A stretch of 39,179 bases of DNA from a virus: the IMG/VR virus record IMGVR_UViG_3300029479_000010; one strand, written 5' to 3'. Below the pieces are notes generated by a model. The model worked only from the letters and a program-made list of their open reading frames with translations, was not told where the DNA came from and did no database searches. This document shows positions 1 to 39,179 of the stretch, in pieces (positions within the stretch are counted from its first letter, which is position 1; each line of letters begins with the position of its first letter). The position numbers were made by a program, and so were the translations under genes.

Positions 1-110
1 AACAATATGTTCATCAATGTACTTATTGTTTCCTAAATGTCCCTAAATGTCCCTAAATGTCCCTAAATGTCCCTAAATGTCCCTAAATGTCCCTAAATGT
101 CCCTAAATGT
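1..110. repeat. Direct terminal repeat, left copy. Bases 1..99 are identical to 39081..39179. It contains tcctaaatgt followed by 7 copies of ccctaaatgt (31..110).
   Basis: Exact identity of the first 99 nt with the last 99 nt of the window. The 10-bp tandem unit was counted directly. Confidence 0.9.
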
Positions 111-200
111 ACAAAAAAAAGAGACATAAAGAGCGATAAAGACACACAAAGAGAGCAGACATAAAGAAACAAAAAGAGACAATAAGTAAGTTATTTTATA
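111..200. repeat. Purine-rich degenerate ~10-11-bp repeats (gacataaagag-like, 4-5 units) just inside the left terminal repeat
   Basis: Units seen directly: gacataaagag, cgataaagaca, cagacataaagaa, aaagagacaataag. They are related to the right-end gggacaataag unit. Confidence 0.6.
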
Positions 201-240
201 CTTATTGTCAACCTTAATGTCCCTGAAGGTGTACATATTG

Positions 241-3451: not shown

Positions 3452-3577
3452 ATGTTCCCAATTGATAGAGACACCTTAGAAACATACATCGCCATAGGTA
3501 TGTTTCATGGGCTGTGTCTTGCTGTGTCTTTATTCATAGCATGGCTTTTATTTTGGATAATCGGAGGTTGCAAGTGA
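3452..3577 (+). CDS. 41-aa hydrophobic peptide (single predicted TM helix), translationally coupled to the RNAP gene
   Basis: ATG 3452 with GGAGG at 3439..3443 (8-nt spacer). Its TGA stop at 3575..3577 overlaps the RNAP ATG. Too short for the ORF track. Confidence 0.45.
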   Translation: MFPIDRDTLETYIAIGMFHGLCLAVSLFIAWLLFWIIGGCK

Positions 3578-6135
3578 TGAAAGATCTGGAACAAAGTCCG
3601 TTGTTTTTAGAAGAGCTTGAAATAGAGTACCAGTTTAAGCACCAAGCAGAAGAACAGCTTAAAAAGCATCTACAAGAGAAGACACGAGCAGGCAAGGCCA
3701 TAGAGACACCAATAGGCCGTGGCTTAATTGAATACCTTTATGATAACTTAGCGACTAACATTGAGGCATTCTTAAAGTATCAAGAAGAGCCAAAAGGAGG
3801 CGTTAAGGCTGCATACTATCCATTGGTCATGTGGTTGCTGGATATCTATAAAGACAATAGACAAGATTTAATTACCCTTTTGTCTTTAGCTACAATCACA
3901 GAAGCCGTCAATGCGGCACACACAACATTATCACTATCAAGCACCTGTCAGAATATACAGCAAGACGTCTTAGAAGAAGCACAGCTACAAGCTTTTTTAC
4001 AGGAGAACAAAGAAAAAGAGCTAAATACTTTGGTAGGGCTGTCAAGACGAAAAAGTAATTTTTATAGGCGTTATTTTATAAAAAATGTCATGAACCAGAC
4101 AGACTGGAAAGAAAAGCAATGGCCACTAAAAGAAACGGTGCTTTTTGGTGCAAAGCTATTAGAAATATGCATGCAAGGAACTGATTTATTTACCACTCAC
4201 TACAGGGTAAACTTTAGGGGCAAGGGCGTCGAGTGCATCGAGCCTACAGATGCTTTTCATAAGATATGGAACTCAAACACTTATTATTTATTATCAAGAG
4301 CCTATCAATCTTGTCCAATGATTATGACACCAGTACCATGGAAATCAGATTTAACAGGGGGCTATTGTGGCGAATTAAATGCTATTCATGGCTTTATTCG
4401 TACAGAGCGCTACCATACACAAGATAGACAAAACAATTTCTTTTTTAAGCAATATAAAGAGCAAGTAAAAGCCGCTGATTTAAGTAATGTCTTAAATGCT
4501 GTAAATAGCATTCAACAGACACCATGGATTATTAACTCTAAGGTGTTGCGGGTAGCAGAGCAGCTTGTTAATCAGGGGGGAGACATAGCAGGATTACCAC
4601 AGATGGAGCCCTTTTCAAAGCTACCAACGCTTGAAAACCCATCACAGGAAGAGTTAAAAAGACACAAGAAAGCAGCCAAACTTTTATACGAGAAAGAAGC
4701 CAGCAGGCGTGGAAAAGCCCTAAGAGTGCACATCAATTTACGCACAGCGCAGCGTTTTGAACAGTACGACAGGGTTTATTTTCCTCATAACATTGATTTT
4801 CGAGGGCGTATCTACCCAATACCGTCTTTTAGTCCACAGGGCGATGAACTGAATAAAGGATTACTGCTATTTGCAGAACCAGAACCACTGGAAAATGATG
4901 AAGACATCCAGTGGTTTTTTATTGCAGGTGCTGAATTTGCAGGAATAGACAAGGTGTCTTTTTCTGATTGTGTCTCTTGGGTAGAAGACAATAAAAGCAA
5001 CATTTTGGACACTGCTGCCCAACCATTAGACATGGTGGACTGGTGGGCTAACTTAGATGCCCCTTTTGAGTTTTTAGCGTGGTGTTTTGAATACCAGAAG
5101 CTCCAGAAGTACCTTGAAGAGCATAATGGTCACGCTAAAGGTTTCGTAACAGGCATACCGATTGCCTTTGATGGGACATGCAGTGGCTTACAGCACTTTT
5201 CTGCTATTTTAAGAGACCCTATTGGAGCCAAAGAGGTCAATTTAGCCCCTGGAGATAAACCAAATGACATCTATCAAACCGTAGCAAATAAAGTTAATGT
5301 TGTCTTACGGCAGGATGCCCAGACAGGCACGGGAGACACCACGGATGAAAAAACACAACAGATACGGTATGGCACCAAAACATTGGCACAAGGCTGGCTG
5401 TCTTTTAGAGTTACCAGAAAGGTAACAAAAAGACCCGTTATGACTCTTGCTTATGGTGCTAAACAGTTTGGTTTCAGAGACCAAATACTGGAAGACACAA
5501 TTATTTCTCATATAGGTGAGGGGCTATTTACGGCTGATAATGCTAACCAATATGCAGGATACATGGCCAAGCTTATTTGGAAAGCAGTACAAACCACGGT
5601 TGTTAAGGCTGTAGAAGGTATGGAATGGTTACAACAGGTGGCACGTATGGTCACTAAGAACGGTGAGGTCATACAGTGGACAACACCTATGGGCTTTATT
5701 GTTCAACAACCATACATGGTTTACAACGTTAAAACATACCAGATGAGGTTTTTACACATCACAAAACGTTTTTACGATATAGAAGTCACAGGTACAGTGG
5801 ATAGACGCAAGCAGTCACAAGCAATTGCACCCAATTTTATTCACAGTATGGATGCCAGCCATCTACAGATGACTGTAAACAGAGCAGCAGAAGCAAAAAT
5901 AACTAACTTTGCAATGATACACGACAGCTATGGTACAACCCTTGCAAAAGCGGGTTTACTGTTCCGTCTAATTCGAGAGTGCTTTGTAGAAATGTATACA
6001 ACCAATGATGTTTTAACAGCGTTTGAAAGAGACCTAAGCCCATTTATAGTGGGTAATCAAAAACTACCACCACAACCGACCAAAGATACTTTTGATATCA
6101 ATCAGGTAAAAGAAAGTTTATATGCTTTTCATTAA
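3577..6135 (+). CDS. Single-subunit DNA-directed RNA polymerase (T7 gene 1 homologue)
   Basis: 852 aa (T7 RNAP is 883). Contains DGTCSGLQH and HDSYGT motifs. ATG 3577 has GGAGG at 3563..3567. The track's 3514 GTG start lacks an RBS. Confidence 0.95.
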   Translation: MKDLEQSPLFLEELEIEYQFKHQAEEQLKKHLQEKTRAGKAIETPIGRGLIEYLYDNLATNIEAFLKYQEEPKGGVKAAYYPLVMWLLDIYKDNRQDLITLLSLATITEAVNAAHTTLSLSSTCQNIQQDVLEEAQLQAFLQENKEKELNTLVGLSRRKSNFYRRYFIKNVMNQTDWKEKQWPLKETVLFGAKLLEICMQGTDLFTTHYRVNFRGKGVECIEPTDAFHKIWNSNTYYLLSRAYQSCPMIMTPVPWKSDLTGGYCGELNAIHGFIRTERYHTQDRQNNFFFKQYKEQVKAADLSNVLNAVNSIQQTPWIINSKVLRVAEQLVNQGGDIAGLPQMEPFSKLPTLENPSQEELKRHKKAAKLLYEKEASRRGKALRVHINLRTAQRFEQYDRVYFPHNIDFRGRIYPIPSFSPQGDELNKGLLLFAEPEPLENDEDIQWFFIAGAEFAGIDKVSFSDCVSWVEDNKSNILDTAAQPLDMVDWWANLDAPFEFLAWCFEYQKLQKYLEEHNGHAKGFVTGIPIAFDGTCSGLQHFSAILRDPIGAKEVNLAPGDKPNDIYQTVANKVNVVLRQDAQTGTGDTTDEKTQQIRYGTKTLAQGWLSFRVTRKVTKRPVMTLAYGAKQFGFRDQILEDTIISHIGEGLFTADNANQYAGYMAKLIWKAVQTTVVKAVEGMEWLQQVARMVTKNGEVIQWTTPMGFIVQQPYMVYNVKTYQMRFLHITKRFYDIEVTGTVDRRKQSQAIAPNFIHSMDASHLQMTVNRAAEAKITNFAMIHDSYGTTLAKAGLLFRLIRECFVEMYTTNDVLTAFERDLSPFIVGNQKLPPQPTKDTFDINQVKESLYAFH

Positions 6136-6462: not shown

Positions 6463-6554
6463 TTTGCAATTCATTCCTAAATATAGAGGTGATTGTCGCA
6501 CTTATATACAAAGTGGTGATTGTCGCACTTATTAGAAGAAAGAGAAAGAAAAAC
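6463..6554 (+). promoter_or_regulatory. Repeated ~92-bp module, copy A. It holds two tandem phage-RNAP promoter-like sequences: ggtgattgtcgcacttatata (6488..6508) and ggtgattgtcgcacttattagaagaaaga (6515..6543), followed by a purine tract.
   Basis: Near-identical module at 36270..36363. The third promoter copy is at 6757..6784. GCACTTATTAGAAGA resembles SP6/T7-class promoters (CACTATAGAAGA). The position matches T7 phi1.1A/phi1.1B. Confidence 0.6.
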
Positions 6555-6756
6555 ATAATGGAACATAAAGGTACATAATGTAACAATAAGGATACTAAAT
6601 GTTTCACTAAGTGTTTATTATTATTGTTTAACTAAATGTATAACTTATATGTTTAACAATTAATTACCTATATGTAACCTATATGATACATAAATGTAGC
6701 AGGTGCTTTGTGTCTTTAAAAACAAAACACAGCATGTTGTGCACACACCTAAAATT

Positions 6757-19752: not shown

Positions 19753-19827
19753 AGGCCAGTAGTTTAATGGAAAAATGGTGGTCTCCAAAACCATAAGATG
19801 TGGGTTCGAGTCCTACCTGGCCTGCCA
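19753..19827 (+). tRNA. tRNA-Trp (anticodon CCA)
   Basis: Manual fold. Acceptor stem aggccag/ctggcct, D-loop with GG, anticodon stem ggtgt-like/acca with loop cuCCAaa (U33, A37), T-arm gtggg-TTCGAGT-cctac, discriminator G, encoded CCA. 75 nt. Confidence 0.75.
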
Positions 19828-23289: not shown

Positions 23290-23926
23290 AGCAGCCGCAC
23301 AGGCCGCAAACATGAAGATGACAGGTGCTGTGCAGGAAATGAACTATGCTTTTCAAAACTATGAACAGGAAAGGCGAGACTCTTATGAGGCGGCTGTTAA
23401 TGATATTATAAAAACCCGTATTAATCAGATGCAGTTAAATTCTTCTGTCCAGGCGGCTATTGCAGAAGGCATGGCTGGGGGTGGAAGGACAGCTGACCGT
23501 CTGATTAGGGCAGGTGAAGCAGACACAGCCAGAGCCGTTGGGTCTATTCAGGATAACTATAGCCGTAAGAGTAATGAGATTGACTTGAATAAAGAAACCA
23601 CGGCTTTGTCTACTAAAGAATATATTGCTAACACCTATGCACAGGCTAAGCCCGATAAGATAGGTGATTTAATGTCTTTAGCTGCTACAGGCCTAAAAGG
23701 CTTTGCCGCACAGAAAGAAGCCGCAGCAACAAGTAATTATCGTAAAAACGCCACTGTGTCTCCTATTGAGACTACAAGGAACGCATTAGGTAACGATAGG
23801 GGCTGGGGTGATTATACAGGCTATAAATTGAAGACAAAGAAACAAAATGATTATAACTTTGCGTGGGAACCAAAGTATTCCAATTCACGCTTTAGAACTA
23901 TGAATAGGTTAAGGGAGGGGGTCTAA
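23225..23926 (+). CDS. Internal virion protein B (T7 gp14 homologue)
   Basis: MCTWAVAGQMALQA... resembles the T7 gp14 N-terminus MCWAAAIPIAIS. Confidence 0.8.
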   Translation: MCTWAVAGQMALQAWGIRQRNKAAAQAANMKMTGAVQEMNYAFQNYEQERRDSYEAAVNDIIKTRINQMQLNSSVQAAIAEGMAGGGRTADRLIRAGEADTARAVGSIQDNYSRKSNEIDLNKETTALSTKEYIANTYAQAKPDKIGDLMSLAATGLKGFAAQKEAAATSNYRKNATVSPIETTRNALGNDRGWGDYTGYKLKTKKQNDYNFAWEPKYSNSRFRTMNRLREGV

Positions 23927-33608: not shown

Positions 33609-34078
33609 CACCTGATGAATTTATTAATTGGTTAGGGCCTAAAGCGGCCGCAGTGGCACATAAATGGAACCTTCCTGCATCCGTATTGATTGCACAGGGG
33701 GCTCTGGAGAGTGGCTGGGGACGGTATGTGATTGGTGATTACAACATCTTTGGCCGTAAATGGAACGGGACAGGCCCCTATATTGTCACAGAGACACAGG
33801 AGTGGTCTGATACATATGGCTACTATACGATTGAAGACCGCTTCCAGGATTACAATTCTTTGGAAGAAGCTTGCGAAGATTGGTGTATTTTGATGGCTGA
33901 AGAACCTGCATATGCGGAAGCATGGCAGATTTGGAGCAACACCTTTGATGTAGCCTCCTTTGTCTATGCTATGGGTAGTGTTTATGCAACCGACCCCGAC
34001 TATGCAAATAAAGTTTTGTCTATTATTGATGCAAATACACTGCAAGCTTACGATGATTATGGGGTGCATAACGCATGA
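33605..34078 (+). CDS. Endolysin, glucosaminidase family (mannosyl-glycoprotein endo-beta-N-acetylglucosaminidase/FlgJ-like)
   Basis: LIAQGALESGWGRYV...NIFG matches the PF01832-type signature. AAGGAG SD. Adjacent to the holin. Confidence 0.75.
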   Translation: MTPDEFINWLGPKAAAVAHKWNLPASVLIAQGALESGWGRYVIGDYNIFGRKWNGTGPYIVTETQEWSDTYGYYTIEDRFQDYNSLEEACEDWCILMAEEPAYAEAWQIWSNTFDVASFVYAMGSVYATDPDYANKVLSIIDANTLQAYDDYGVHNA

Positions 34079-34302
34079 TAAAAATTGATGAAAAGCTGAT
34101 AGACCAGATAGCAGAACTGGAAGTCACCGCACTGCTTGAAGGATTGAAAGACAAAGAGCTAAGAAAGAACCCCGCTTTTCTGGATAAGGTACGAAAGTTT
34201 CTTAAAGAAAACGATATGAAGACCACACCAGAAACTAAGGGAATGACAGAATTAAAGAAACAAGCAACCGAAGTAATTCCTATATTTAAAGACATGCGGT
34301 GA
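34075..34302 (+). CDS. Terminase small subunit (gp18-like)
   Basis: 75 aa, located immediately upstream of the large terminase. Positional homologue. Confidence 0.6.
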   Translation: MIKIDEKLIDQIAELEVTALLEGLKDKELRKNPAFLDKVRKFLKENDMKTTPETKGMTELKKQATEVIPIFKDMR

Positions 34303-34308
34303 TAAAGA

Positions 34309-36021
34309 ATGTGGACAGAAGAGCAGATAACAGAAGCAAGCAAAGATTTTCGTGTCTTTGTCTTCATGGTCTGGAAAAGTATTGGTCTTCCTGCCCCCAC
34401 GGCCATTCAATATGACATAGCAAAATACTTAATGACCCCACCTGGAGACCGCTTTATCATTGAGGGTTTCCGTGGGGTTGCTAAGTCTTTCCTAACTTGT
34501 GCCTATACGGTATGGCGATTGTGGAAAGACCCACAGCTAAAGGTATTGGTTGTCTCCGCCTCCAAAGACAGAGCAGATGCAAACGCTGTATTTATTAAAC
34601 GTATTATTATGCTGCTGCCTTTTTTGGAACCTTTGTTGCCACAAAGAGGACAAAGAGATACACAAAATCTTTTTGATGTTGGTCTTGCTGTCCCTGATAT
34701 TTCCCCGTCTGTTAAATCAGTGGGAATTACAGGCCAGATTACAGGGAGCCGTGCAGACCTGCTAATCGCCGATGACGTGGAGGTCCCAAACAATTCTGGG
34801 ACGCAAATACAAAGAGATAAGTTATCAGAAGCCGTCAAAGAATTTGATGCTGTCTTAAAACCGGGTGGTCAAATTATCTATCTTGGTACACCACAGAATG
34901 AAATGTCGCTTTATAATGAATTGACAAAACGTGGGTACAAAAAGATGGTATGGACAGTTACTTATCCAAAAAACCAAAAAGAACGCGAAAATTATGGGGA
35001 CGAATTAGCCCCCTTTATTGCCCAGAAGTTCGATATGAACCCCACAAGGTACAGTGGGCTGCCTACTGACCCTGAAAGGTTCGATGAAGACGAGATAGCA
35101 AAACGTAAGCTATCCTATGGGCGTGCAGGTTTTGCCTTACAGTTCATGCTCAATACGAACCTGTCTGACGCAGAAAAGTACCCATTGAAAGTAAAAGATC
35201 TCATTGTGGCTGATTTAGACCTTAATAGCTCCTCTATGAAATGGGCATGGTGCAGTGAGCCGTCTAAAAGGTTACATGATGTACCCTGTGTGGCACTTAA
35301 AGGTGATTACTTTTATGGAGCATTAAGTCGCTCTGAAGAGACAGAAAATTATACAGGAACAGTAATGGCGATAGATCCGTCTGGCCGTGGAAAAGATGAA
35401 TCAGCATACGCCATTGTAAAGTACCTAAATGGTTATTTATTTCTTATGGAAGTAGGAGGATATCGTAACGGTTATGCTCCTGAAACTCTTTCTGCTTTAG
35501 CTTTGAAGGCTAAATTTTATGGAGTTAATGAGGTTGTTATTGAGTCTAACTTTGGGGATGGTATGTTCTTACAGTTATTAAAACCCGTATTAAACAAAAC
35601 ACACCCTTGTGCTACTTCAGAAGTAAACAATAGGACACAAAAAGAACAGCGTATTATAGACACCTTAGAACCTGTTATGATGCAGCACAGACTTATCATA
35701 AATACCACAGTAATCATGGAAGATTATGGTGTCTATGAGGGCAACCCAGCGTACTCATTGTTTTACCAGATGACCCGTTTGTGTAACGAAAGGGGCGCAT
35801 TGGCACATGATGACCGCTTAGATGCTGTGTCTATGGCAGTAGCCCATTGGAAAGAAGTTTTGGATAGAGATGCTGATACGGGCATTGAAGAACACCTTGA
35901 AGAACAATTAGAAGCATGGTCTGACCCTGATAGGGGAATTACATATATTCCTGATATGGGTAAACAACAATTATCCACAGGACACTATCACCTTAAGAAC
36001 CTTGCTCCATATCGTTCATAG
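34309..36021 (+). CDS. Terminase large subunit (T7 gp19 homologue)
   Basis: GFRGVAKSFLTCAYTVWRLWKDPQLKVLVVSASKDRADANAVFIK matches T7 [45 protein letters not shown]. Confidence 0.95.
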   Translation: MWTEEQITEASKDFRVFVFMVWKSIGLPAPTAIQYDIAKYLMTPPGDRFIIEGFRGVAKSFLTCAYTVWRLWKDPQLKVLVVSASKDRADANAVFIKRIIMLLPFLEPLLPQRGQRDTQNLFDVGLAVPDISPSVKSVGITGQITGSRADLLIADDVEVPNNSGTQIQRDKLSEAVKEFDAVLKPGGQIIYLGTPQNEMSLYNELTKRGYKKMVWTVTYPKNQKERENYGDELAPFIAQKFDMNPTRYSGLPTDPERFDEDEIAKRKLSYGRAGFALQFMLNTNLSDAEKYPLKVKDLIVADLDLNSSSMKWAWCSEPSKRLHDVPCVALKGDYFYGALSRSEETENYTGTVMAIDPSGRGKDESAYAIVKYLNGYLFLMEVGGYRNGYAPETLSALALKAKFYGVNEVVIESNFGDGMFLQLLKPVLNKTHPCATSEVNNRTQKEQRIIDTLEPVMMQHRLIINTTVIMEDYGVYEGNPAYSLFYQMTRLCNERGALAHDDRLDAVSMAVAHWKEVLDRDADTGIEEHLEEQLEAWSDPDRGITYIPDMGKQQLSTGHYHLKNLAPYRS

Positions 36022-36269: not shown

Positions 36270-36363
36270 ATTTGCAATTCATTCCTAAATATAAAGGTGA
36301 TTGTCGCACTTATATACAAAGTGGTGATTGTCGCACTTATTAGAGAGAAGAGAAAGAAAAAAA
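36270..36363 (+). promoter_or_regulatory. Repeated ~92-bp module, copy B (phiOR-like position). Tandem phage promoter-like sequences at 36296..36316 and 36323..36351, then a purine tract.
   Basis: Three mismatches to 6463..6554. It is upstream of the two right-end + strand genes. Confidence 0.6.
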
Positions 36364-36485
36364 AAATCCAAACACGAGGGGGAAAGACAACACTTAGATA
36401 TACATATAAGTACATATATGTAACATTAAGGTACATTAAGATTCCTTTATGTAACAATATGTAACATTAAGGAGGCATATAAGTA

Positions 36486-37326: not shown

Positions 37327-37419
37327 CAATTGACACAAAATAGACACACGATACCCTGATTATTCAGCAAATATCGTATTTATTATTATTTTAAGCATTT
37401 TATTTTGATGTATTTAAGT

Positions 37420-37506: not shown

Positions 37507-38607
37507 TTATTTCTTGTTTATTAAATTGTTTATAAGGGAGGCAGCTTTTTTGTCTTCTTCCTGGACGGCATGGGTGTACCTATTGAGCGTTATAGAGACA
37601 TCACTGTGTCCTAAGCGGGCACTTACTGTCTTTGGATTGACACCTTTTGCTATTAACCAGGTGGCATTGGTGTGCCGTAAGTCATGAAAGCGCATATGGA
37701 GCCCTAATGACTCACTAAGGTGCTTAAAGGCTACAGAAATGGCTGTAGGGGCAAAATAAGATCCAATAGCATTCGGAAAGACAACAATATCATGCTTTTT
37801 ATAAGTGAGTAGTATTTTGATAGTTTGAGCATCTACTGCTATTGTTCTTTGTGCCTTCTGTGTCTTAGGTGTTTGTATAGAGGTGTCTGAAGCAATAGAG
37901 CGGTGGATAGTAATTGTATTATTGGCTGTGTCTATATCCGACCAGTGAAGACCTAAGACTTCACCACGTCTAAAGCCGCATTCTAAGCACAAGAGGATGA
38001 TAGGGTACCAGGGGATACCTGTATGTACCTTCATGTTCTTAACTGAATTTAGTAATAGCTGTGCTTCATTGATTGTTAAAGGTACTATTTCTTTTTGTCT
38101 TGTTTTTATATTTTCAGACAAAGATACAGGATTAGTAAAGATAAGCTCTTCTGCTATTGCTGTCTGAAATATCATACTTAGGACAGTCCGATAGACATTC
38201 GTAGTAGCACTGCTATAATTTTTATGTTGAATAAGAAAAGTATTTATATCTTTTGTCTTAATATCCTTCAGGGGTGTTTGATGAAAGAAGGGTATAAAAT
38301 GCTTATTTATATAATGAATGTAAGATTTATATGTTGTACTTTTTACTTTGCCTTCTTTGATTTCTAAGAAGTGATTACAGTAAATATTAAAAGGAGTCAT
38401 GCTATTAATGCTAAGGATACCTTTTTCTTTTTCATATTGGTATTGTTGCATTAGTTTGATGACTTCTCTTTTGTCTGTACCTGTGAAGGTTTTCCTGATA
38501 CGTTTTTGTGTCTGGGGGTCTTTACCGAGGTCTAAGAAGCCTCTATAGTGTCCCTTTTTGTACTCAATGATACTGCCTTCACCCTTTTGTCTTCGTTGAT
38601 GTTTCAT
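37507..38607 (-). CDS. int: Tyrosine-type site-specific recombinase/integrase
   Basis: C-terminal catalytic region ...RFHDLRHTNATWLIAKGVNPKTVSARLGHSDVSITLNRYTHAV (R..H-x-x-R...Y). ATG at 38607 with AAGGAG 6 nt upstream on the minus strand. The track's 38631 TTG start is less likely. Confidence 0.85.
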   Translation of the reverse strand: MKHQRRQKGEGSIIEYKKGHYRGFLDLGKDPQTQKRIRKTFTGTDKREVIKLMQQYQYEKEKGILSINSMTPFNIYCNHFLEIKEGKVKSTTYKSYIHYINKHFIPFFHQTPLKDIKTKDINTFLIQHKNYSSATTNVYRTVLSMIFQTAIAEELIFTNPVSLSENIKTRQKEIVPLTINEAQLLLNSVKNMKVHTGIPWYPIILLCLECGFRRGEVLGLHWSDIDTANNTITIHRSIASDTSIQTPKTQKAQRTIAVDAQTIKILLTYKKHDIVVFPNAIGSYFAPTAISVAFKHLSESLGLHMRFHDLRHTNATWLIAKGVNPKTVSARLGHSDVSITLNRYTHAVQEEDKKAASLINNLINKK

Positions 38608-38904
38608 TATGGTCTCCTTTAGGGGGCACAAAAATAAAAATATGTAAAAATTGTGAAATGTGGGTTAATGAATTACAAAATATAAAAATACCCCCATATG
38701 TCCCTAATTGTACCATATGTCCCATATAGTAATAATAAAGTAAATCTGATACATATAGGCCCTAATGTGCCCAAGGTGTGACTATAAAGAAACCATAAAC
38801 AATCTATAACGTTTTACATATACCTATAGGGGTATATGGTATACCTGGTGTAGCCCATAATTCCTCATTTTGTTTCCTTTTTGTCAGGATTTATGGGCGT
38901 AAAA

Positions 38905-39003
38905 GGGGACGTAAAGGGACAATAAGGGGACAATAAGGGGACAATAAGGGGACAATAAGGGGACAATAAGGGGACAATAAGGGGACAATAAGGGGACATA
39001 ATG
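38905..39003. repeat. Tandem array of the 11-bp unit gggacaataag: 7 perfect copies at 38916..38992 plus degenerate flanking units
   Basis: Counted directly. It is oriented inversely (GGGACA) to the TGTCCC core of the 10-bp terminal-repeat units. Confidence 0.85.
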
Positions 39004-39080
39004 TTACCTGTTTGTTGTTTAAATGATAACGTTTTTGTTATCAATAAGGGACATATAGATATTTTATCTGTTAGATATCG

Positions 39081-39179
39081 AACAATATGTTCATCAATGT
39101 ACTTATTGTTTCCTAAATGTCCCTAAATGTCCCTAAATGTCCCTAAATGTCCCTAAATGTCCCTAAATGTCCCTAAATG
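39081..39179. repeat. Direct terminal repeat, right copy (identical to 1..99). The window ends within the 10-bp array.
   Basis: Exact match to the window start. Confidence 0.9.

Follow-up and report, generated by a model that had tools for sequence, protein, structure and literature searches.

The complex of RNA polymerase and lysozyme was described to pause at the concatemer junction of T7, thereby starting maturation (PMC3276506). Furthermore, gp18 was reported to recognize PacB and gp19 to cut PacC (PMC9860248), and published work on the class II junction pause and termination site showed that its core, ATCTGTT, needs A, C or T in the preceding position. Landmark rules for such junctions were deduced from the terminal sequences of six phages whose ends have been mapped, namely T7, T3, RSB2, K1F, SP6 and gh-1. 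Their terminal repeats are 160–231 bp long, end 0–3 nt before ATCTGT(T/A) and are followed by arrays of short repeats. The repeat starts 7 nt after AAAAATCTGA in T7, T3, RSB2 and gh-1; variants of this left boundary are AAAAGTTTGA in K1F, also at +7, and AAAATTTTGA in SP6, located approximately 20 nt upstream. Moreover, a CCCCCATAG-like box is present 24–30 nt inside the repeat in all six phages, being represented in T7 by TTCCCCCATAGG at +25. To our knowledge, the function of the flanking arrays of the T7 type has not been established, even for T7 itself, and a search for named functions of the T7 flanking repeats found none in the literature collection covered. Temperate members of the T7-like group have also been described, in which the integrase gene is usually located upstream of the polymerase gene and is accompanied by a regulator of the MarR type (PMC10134795).

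The stretch of DNA analyzed in this study (IMG/VR virus record IMGVR_UViG_3300029479_000010; 39,179 nucleotides, hereafter referred to as the window) contains a junction of this known T7 type, here residing in a Dialister prophage, the arrays of which are real, biological features that are unusually regular and variable between strains. The region extending from approximately position 38646 through the contig join to approximately position 210 is interpreted as the concatemer junction at which the DNA of a temperate T7-like Dialister phage is matured and packaged. The arrays would represent its reiterated elements, and the 99-bp repeat at the contig ends a k-mer overlap. A probability of roughly 0.7 is assigned to this reading.

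Identity and Gene Content of the Phage

The window represents a complete T7-like genome with nearly all genes on the plus strand. It encodes a single-subunit RNA polymerase of the T7 type (3514–6135, plus strand), recognized by domain matches, as well as a family A DNA polymerase and a T7-type portal protein; the domain matches supporting the T7-type machinery are PF22530, PF00940 and PF12236. The large terminase gene (34309–36021, plus strand), whose product features the T7 RNase H-like domain (PF22530) and shares 56–58% identity with terminases of the T7 group, is directly preceded by a candidate small terminase gene (34075–34302, plus strand) showing a weak match to phrog_891 (E-value 1.6e-4). 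The genes for a T7-type large terminase and a single-subunit RNA polymerase, both expected for a junction of the T7 group, are thus present. The repeat region is flanked by minus-strand genes for a tyrosine integrase (37507–38607) and a ribbon-helix-helix (RHH) protein (241–510). A tRNA-Trp gene (anticodon CCA; 19753–19827) was additionally observed between the capsid and tail-tube genes.

Megablast of 25 kb of the genome against isolated phages retrieved no close relative. In the collection searched, 183 blocks have an index entry for the tube protein of the phage, including contigs of 69–589 kb. The results document a widespread T7-like prophage of the human gut that carries its packaging junction beside the integrase gene.

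The Repeat at the Contig Ends

The first 99 nucleotides of the window recur exactly at its end (1–99 = 39081–39179). This is the sole length at which prefix and suffix coincide, since no overlap of any length other than 99 was found. The original prediction had described this feature as the direct terminal repeat of the virus. The exact identity of prefix and suffix stood, whereas its interpretation as the terminal repeat of the virion DNA did not, given the k-sized length and a second assembly of the same genome having no end at this site. A value of 99 is a standard final k of de Bruijn assemblers. Furthermore, the same genome was obtained from a human gut sample as an independent MEGAHIT contig, k127_111815, with a length of 39,206 bp corresponding to 39,079 + 127. 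From the coordinates, this contig was predicted to open at approximately window position 23328, inside a gp14-like virion gene, which was then confirmed at its left end, where a gp14-like gene encoding 768 aa occupies positions 601–2907. The RHH gene, the full junction and the integrase gene are located mid-contig in k127_111815, and its junction is identical to that of the window, including the same 7 and 8 units. Likewise, nine prophage copies, among them seven IMG/VR contigs and a 578-kb Dialister scaffold, run unbroken through the junction. The contig ends are therefore not fixed: a genuine terminal repeat should have a length unrelated to k and the same ends across assemblies, and here the length is 99 and the k127 contig opens elsewhere. 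It was previously found that the terminal repeat of T7-like phages collapses in short-read assemblies, the contigs of which open at arbitrary positions (PMC10438801).

The 99-bp repeat nevertheless looked like a real end, because the window opens just 15 nt to the right of the right boundary predicted below, and a random opening within 50 nt has a probability of approximately 0.3%. If it were the physical terminal repeat, the virion DNA would extend from AACAATATG, 8 nt after ATCTGTT, to a point inside the 10-bp array, and the redundancy would consist of tandem units. An opening exactly at this position would be improbable if random, and the start lies close to the distance of approximately 8 nt downstream of its motif at which class II pausing occurs. 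Moreover, the heptamer with which the T7 and T3 repeats end, TGTCCCT, recurs in every 10-bp unit. However, besides the k-sized length and the k127 assembly of the identical genome without an end at this site, all six mapped-end phages (6/6) have their repeat to the left of ATCTGT and not to the right, and the arrays of near-identical strains comprise between 2 units and 13 or more, which would imply a repeat of 20–130 bp. A physical 99-bp terminal repeat is accordingly regarded as very unlikely. Equally little credence is given to the related proposal that the 10-bp array is, or overlaps, the physical end, with the terminase cutting after a TGTCCCT unit and a tandem-unit redundancy that is resized by slippage between strains. 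If this were true, terminal repeats would be made and resized in a manner unlike the fixed duplication of T7.

Since its length equals k and both the k127 contig and the prophages are continuous at this site, the 99-bp repeat provides no evidence of physical ends and looks like a k-mer overlap produced by an assembler that linearized a circular path. Other 'direct terminal repeats' originating from de Bruijn paths are likewise exact overlaps of length k, in line with the k127 assembly of the same genome opening elsewhere; unlike these, the opening here happens to fall within 15 nt of a predicted boundary. The likeliest cause suspected for this position is graph branching due to strain variation in a hypervariable stretch. 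For metagenomic data, this means that a 'direct terminal repeat' on the basis of which a phage genome is called complete can be nothing but a k-mer overlap.

Landmarks of the Concatemer Junction and the Predicted Terminal Repeat

All three landmarks known from the mapped-end phages occur once each in the window, in order and on the plus strand. The left-boundary landmark (38646–38663) consists of AAAAATTGTGA (38646–38656) plus 7 nt and is the counterpart of AAAAATCTGA-GTGACTA, which directly precedes the repeat in T7. It is invariant in seven relatives and also present in a sister clade (L127 and L128). The second landmark is a CCCCCATATG box (38691–38700), located 27 nt inside the predicted repeat and resembling T7 TTCCCCCATAGG as well as similar boxes in T3, K1F, SP6, gh-1 and RSB2. 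The third, ATCTGTT preceded by T (39066–39072), marks the predicted right boundary; it is the sole plus-strand copy in 39 kb and invariant in all relatives. It is embedded in a conserved block (ATAGATATTTTATCTGTTAGATATCGAACAATATGTTCAT..TACTTATTGT; 39058–39110, plus strand), the last 30 nt of which recur as positions 1–30 of the window. The window contains the composite landmark just once; among 1000 genomes simulated with a first-order Markov model, it arose in 3.

In the mapped-end phages, H-ATCTGT(T/A) is followed by short arrays; in the window, arrays likewise follow T-ATCTGTT within 38 nt. AAAAAT(C)TGA plus 7 nt and the CCCCCATAG box were found as well, although TCTC, with which the repeat starts in five of the six reference phages, is absent at the predicted left end. 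For this reason, the exact left cut is uncertain, and the start of the repeat is given to within approximately 10 nt. As another candidate for the left boundary, AAATCTGA at 38742 (sole plus-strand copy) was considered and dropped: it is T/A polymorphic among strains, and both the sister clade and the spacing to the CCCCC box favor AAAAATTGTGA.

From these landmarks, the true direct terminal repeat is predicted to occupy approximately 38664–39065 (402 bp, plus strand), which provides concrete positions for both ends, ~38664 and ~39065. Since a repeat of approximately 402 bp is longer than any short-read k, assembly into a circle is to be expected. The 11-bp array is located inside the predicted repeat; the 10-bp array and the ACATAAAGAG-type array follow outside, to its right. 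Because the 10-bp array is situated on the right side of ATCTGTT (39066–39072), it is the counterpart of the arrays located right of the repeat in T7 and not the repeat itself. Consequently, the proposal of a terminal repeat built from 10-bp units was not substantiated, the overlap from which it started being of k-mer size. The analogy to T7, on the other hand, was confirmed by the T7-like genome and by an order of elements homologous to that of T7, T3, RSB2, K1F, SP6 and gh-1. The three landmarks can thus be used for predicting the real ends of T7-like phages ranging from coliphages to an AT-rich Negativicute prophage.

Repeat Arrays and Isolated Core Motifs

The 10-bp array is composed of eight head-to-tail units of (T/C)CCTAAATGT (31–110, plus strand; TRF: 100% matches, score 158), and a second, partial copy is located at 39111–39179. 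A poly-A run separates it from the degenerate ACATAAAGAG-type array comprising approximately four units (116–186, plus strand; TRF matches of 62–74%). [quoted passage not shown] The eight 10-bp units, the degenerate units inside the left end and the seven perfect 11-bp copies had all been predicted correctly, the latter with boundaries (38905–39003) that were right within a few bases. Also confirmed was the opposite orientation of the cores: TGTCCC in the 10-bp units and GGGACA in the 11-bp units are reverse complements located on opposite strands. Isolated TGTCCC/GGGACA cores occur at 218, 38699, 38718 and 39048. These four copies in the non-array part of the junction compare to 0.31 expected (P ~3e-4), which substantiates the clustering noted previously.

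Further motifs were observed in the junction. A perfect inverted repeat, GACAATAAGTA(10 nt)TACTTATTGTC (178–209), is followed by a T-rich run on the minus strand, is conserved among strains and represents a possible terminator of the RHH transcript. The motif ACAATAAG is common to this inverted repeat and the 11-bp units. Altogether, ACAATAAG/CTTATTGT was counted 16 times in the genome, with 10 of the copies residing in the junction (20–29, 178–188, 199–209 and 38919–38992). Apart from the copies within arrays, these include conserved single sites that immediately precede the 10-bp array or belong to the 178–209 hairpin, and the motif may constitute a second class of protein-binding site. Rfam and tRNA scans of the junction detected no RNA gene.

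When viral contigs were searched for the 10-bp unit, matches were obtained in unrelated elements only. An unrelated siphovirus group (L003, L004, L005 and L007; positions 2650–2690 in L005) carries three CCCTAAATGT units at the 3' end of a gene that precedes terS by approximately 1.4 kb, and approximately 31 units are present in a giant-virus contig (L006, 9250–9560) beside NCLDV capsid and VLTF3 genes. The CCCTAAATGT unit includes the telomere-like sequence CCCTAAA. The idea that the 10-bp unit represents a shared host-factor site was rejected, all matches in viral contigs being located in unrelated elements.

Variation among Strains and in the Sister Clade

The window was aligned with seven relatives, and conservation was expressed as the fraction of relatives identical to the window. 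The left-boundary block (38608–38760) reached values of 0.98–1.00, the pause block (39058–39110) 0.90–0.99 and the region 128–217 values of 0.86–0.98, whereas the arrays are hypervariable, with fractions of mostly 0–0.5. The ACATAAAGAG-type array (116–186) varies less from strain to strain than the 10-bp array. In the latter, the number of CTAAATG units ranges from 2 to at least 13. The upper value refers to the prophage scaffold, which has a gap inside the array with 12 countable units, approximately 6.5 and 6, around it, so that at least 13 are present. The CTAAATG core itself is kept, and the three bases between the cores vary (CCC, TCT, TAC, GCC). The 11-bp array is represented by 1–4 degenerate units in other strains, and the predicted terminal repeats of the relatives measure 311–402 bp. 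The hypervariable arrays are usable as strain markers and offer a natural deletion and expansion series for studying array function.

The sister clade, whose terminase is 75–76% identical, shares the left motif, the C box and ATCTGTT; it carries arrays of its own CTCTTAAAG type and lacks the integrase and RHH genes at the junction. Its ATCTGTT block was observed to be duplicated, as a 59-bp tandem at the contig end in L127 (9040–9183) and as two copies 89 bp apart in L128 (5340–5460); the L127 contig also breaks at the junction. Moreover, a 45-bp segment, TGAAAGTTATATATGTGTCTATTTATAATAAATATGTTATAGAT, is absent from the window (39053–39060) and from L016, is present in L017 (3670–3725) and occurs in a related form in other strains. 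Its absence apparently resulted from a deletion between two TATAGAT repeats.

Integrase, Attachment Site and Prophage State

The tyrosine integrase gene (37507–38607, minus strand; 366 aa, domain match) is located between the last late ORF and the junction. Seven IMG/VR contigs of 38.5–40.2 kb encode an integrase that is 98–99% identical, and all of them stop just past the integrase stop codon, host flank being kept in one of the seven. In the 578-kb scaffold, the integrase stop codon is followed by host rpsO and an ABC transporter. Comparison of the window with the prophage placed the approximate attP crossover at 37383–37395, where host DNA on the rpsO side joins phage DNA. The counterpart of the crossover was observed in L017 at 5180–5460; the prophage is integrated downstream of rpsO, and the IMG/VR relatives are trimmed prophages ending there. 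The S15 protein encoded by the flanking host gene shares 93% identity with its counterpart from an uncultured Dialister, and the host was assigned to Dialister on account of this match. An integrase scan of species genomes gave no match.

The opposite-strand position of the integrase gene behind the late genes means that the prophage holds the packaging junction internally, beside the integrase gene. Since the sister clade has no integrase there, the attP-integrase module was evidently inserted just left of the junction. This proximity might suggest that the arrays serve as arm-type or accessory attP sites for the integrase and an excision factor: the integrase gene starts approximately 300 nt from the 11-bp array, and approximately 80 N-terminal residues of the enzyme lie outside the Pfam catalytic and SAM-like matches and could form an arm-binding domain. 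Arm-type sites should lie within a few hundred bp of the crossover, however, and the crossover at ~37385–37395 is on the other side of the integrase gene, approximately 1.5 kb or more from the arrays. In addition, arrays and landmarks are found in the sister clade, which has no integrase at this position, and in virulent phages of the T7 group. A function as attP arm sites is therefore considered extremely unlikely.

The RHH Gene and Its Possible Operator

The minus-strand gene at 241–510 encodes an RHH regulator (RHH_9/DUF6290, domain match) that is likely a lysogeny regulator. Together with the region 510–700 it forms an exchangeable cassette. In L008, L009 and L013, a different RHH-like gene, encoding 113 aa, is present, and the adjoining stretch 245–700 was exchanged jointly with it; L011 contains both types. 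The RHH beta-strands of the two alleles differ, reading DYIRFRLS and ATLTVRLT. The region separating the RHH gene from the early genes contains a perfect palindrome (TTATGTATGACA..TGTCATACATAA; 642–690), each arm of which measures 12 bp.

Proteins of the RHH type are known binders of tandem short repeats, and the original prediction had pointed to omega and ParG as models for an RHH protein acting on the arrays. In this case, the arrays would be iterons bound cooperatively by the adjacent RHH protein, thereby controlling integrase or early transcription or silencing the prophage junction. The distance of 130 nt between gene and arrays, the phasing of the units at 10–11 bp and the binding habits of the protein family agree with such a function. 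It would be expected, though, that the units co-vary with the beta-strand and belong to the same module. Strains with the other RHH allele, which also have a different divergent promoter region, retain the same CTAAATG and ACATAAAGA cores, and array copy number is independent of the RHH type. Furthermore, the exchanged cassette stops at the RHH stop codon, thus including 510–700 and the palindrome and excluding the arrays, and a conserved hairpin with a T-run is situated between the RHH gene and the arrays. Arrays also exist without an RHH gene nearby, both in the sister clade (L128) and in the T7 group. These findings do not support the iteron proposal, which appears highly improbable, and the 642–690 palindrome is a better candidate for the RHH operator than the arrays.

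Candidate Promoters and Origin-Like Arrays

A family of candidate phage-polymerase promoters, GGTGATTGTCGCACTTAT, is represented by five copies on the plus strand versus none (0) expected. An 80-bp block is duplicated at 6466–6545 and 36274–36350, each copy containing two tandem GGTGATTGTCGCACTTAT motifs, and the fifth copy, with two mismatches, is located at 6756. The pair at 6488/6515 immediately follows the polymerase gene, a location resembling that of the T7 phi1.1A/B origin. Contigs of the phage in the Logan assemblies (L113–L118) measure approximately 29.8–30.5 kb, which equals the spacing of the two duplicated blocks; because of this match, the Logan assemblies probably break at the promoter-block duplication.

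The tandem candidate promoters at 36296/36323 (36296–36340, plus strand) immediately follow the terminase gene, where phiOR is found in T7, and are directed towards the junction. No plus-strand terminator was found between this pair and the junction. The pair is 2.7 kb upstream of the junction and must read antisense through the integrase gene, compared to a distance of approximately 0.9 kb in T7.

AT-rich arrays with a period of approximately 10 bp were observed after each promoter pair (6552–6660 and 36400–36470). Their units and those of the junction arrays belong to one motif family (ACATAATGG, ACATAAAGG, ACAATAAGG, CTAAATGT and ACATTAAGG), and the AT-rich arrays may be origin regions. Accordingly, it could be argued that the junction arrays serve end replication instead of packaging, either as clusters of primase sites or as AT-rich iterons of the origin type, with the last lagging-strand primers thereby being placed by the repeat. 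The T7-origin-like layout of same-family arrays (ACATAAAGG, ACAATAAGG, CTAAATGT, ACATTAAGG) behind both promoter pairs speaks for this idea, as does the presence of GTC or GAC, the T7 primase core, in every unit. T7, T3 and RSB2 moreover show the expected GTC strand bias around the repeat. This bias is missing in K1F, SP6 and gh-1, however, and the 10-bp array of the window is biased in the wrong direction. Furthermore, no phage promoter adjoins the junction arrays. A role in end replication is accordingly deemed unlikely.

Proposed Maturation Pathway and Comparison with Known Systems

For the concatemer junction favored here, a pathway modeled on T7 is proposed. Replicating, excised or integrated DNA would contain a single copy of the approximately 400-bp terminal repeat. 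The phage RNA polymerase, starting from the promoter pair behind the terminase gene, would transcribe across the repeat and pause at ATCTGTT (39066–39072). The small and large terminase subunits would then recognize the junction, cut at both boundaries and duplicate the repeat, as in T7, so that each virion DNA would end with the repeat on both sides. The arrays would most likely provide the maturation complex, presumably its small terminase, with repeated sites for contact or phasing. Under this model, the 7–8-nt array cores would be constrained, and the copy number would drift by replication slippage.

The junction of the window and those of T7 and T3 share the same order of elements, i.e., AAAAAT..TGA plus 7 nt, the repeat with its CCCCCATA box, ATCTGTT, the arrays and the early region. 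The similarity extends to the unit sequences, CCTAAATG corresponding to CCTAAAG of T7 and ACATAAAGAG to ACATAAAGAC of T7, and to the T7-type terminase and RNA polymerase with a promoter pair behind the terminase gene. Several features differ. In the arrays of the window, units of 10 and 11 bp follow one another head to tail in perfect tandem, whereas the 7-mers of T7 recur in imperfect periods of 12–13 bp. Furthermore, one array is located inside the predicted repeat, in contrast to T7 and T3, and the predicted repeat, with approximately 310–400 bp, is longer than the 160–231 bp of the mapped-end phages. Also in contrast to T7 and T3, the junction is bordered directly on the left by an attP-integrase module and has an RHH gene on the right, and the host is a Negativicute. 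The combination of a T7-like genome, a tyrosine integrase and an integrated state is shared with LUZ100, Pasto, HTVC019P, P-SSP7 and the prophage of P. putida KT2440 (PMC10134795). Compared to these known temperate T7-like phages, the integrase gene of the Dialister phage is located on the opposite strand behind the late genes and is accompanied by RHH regulators.
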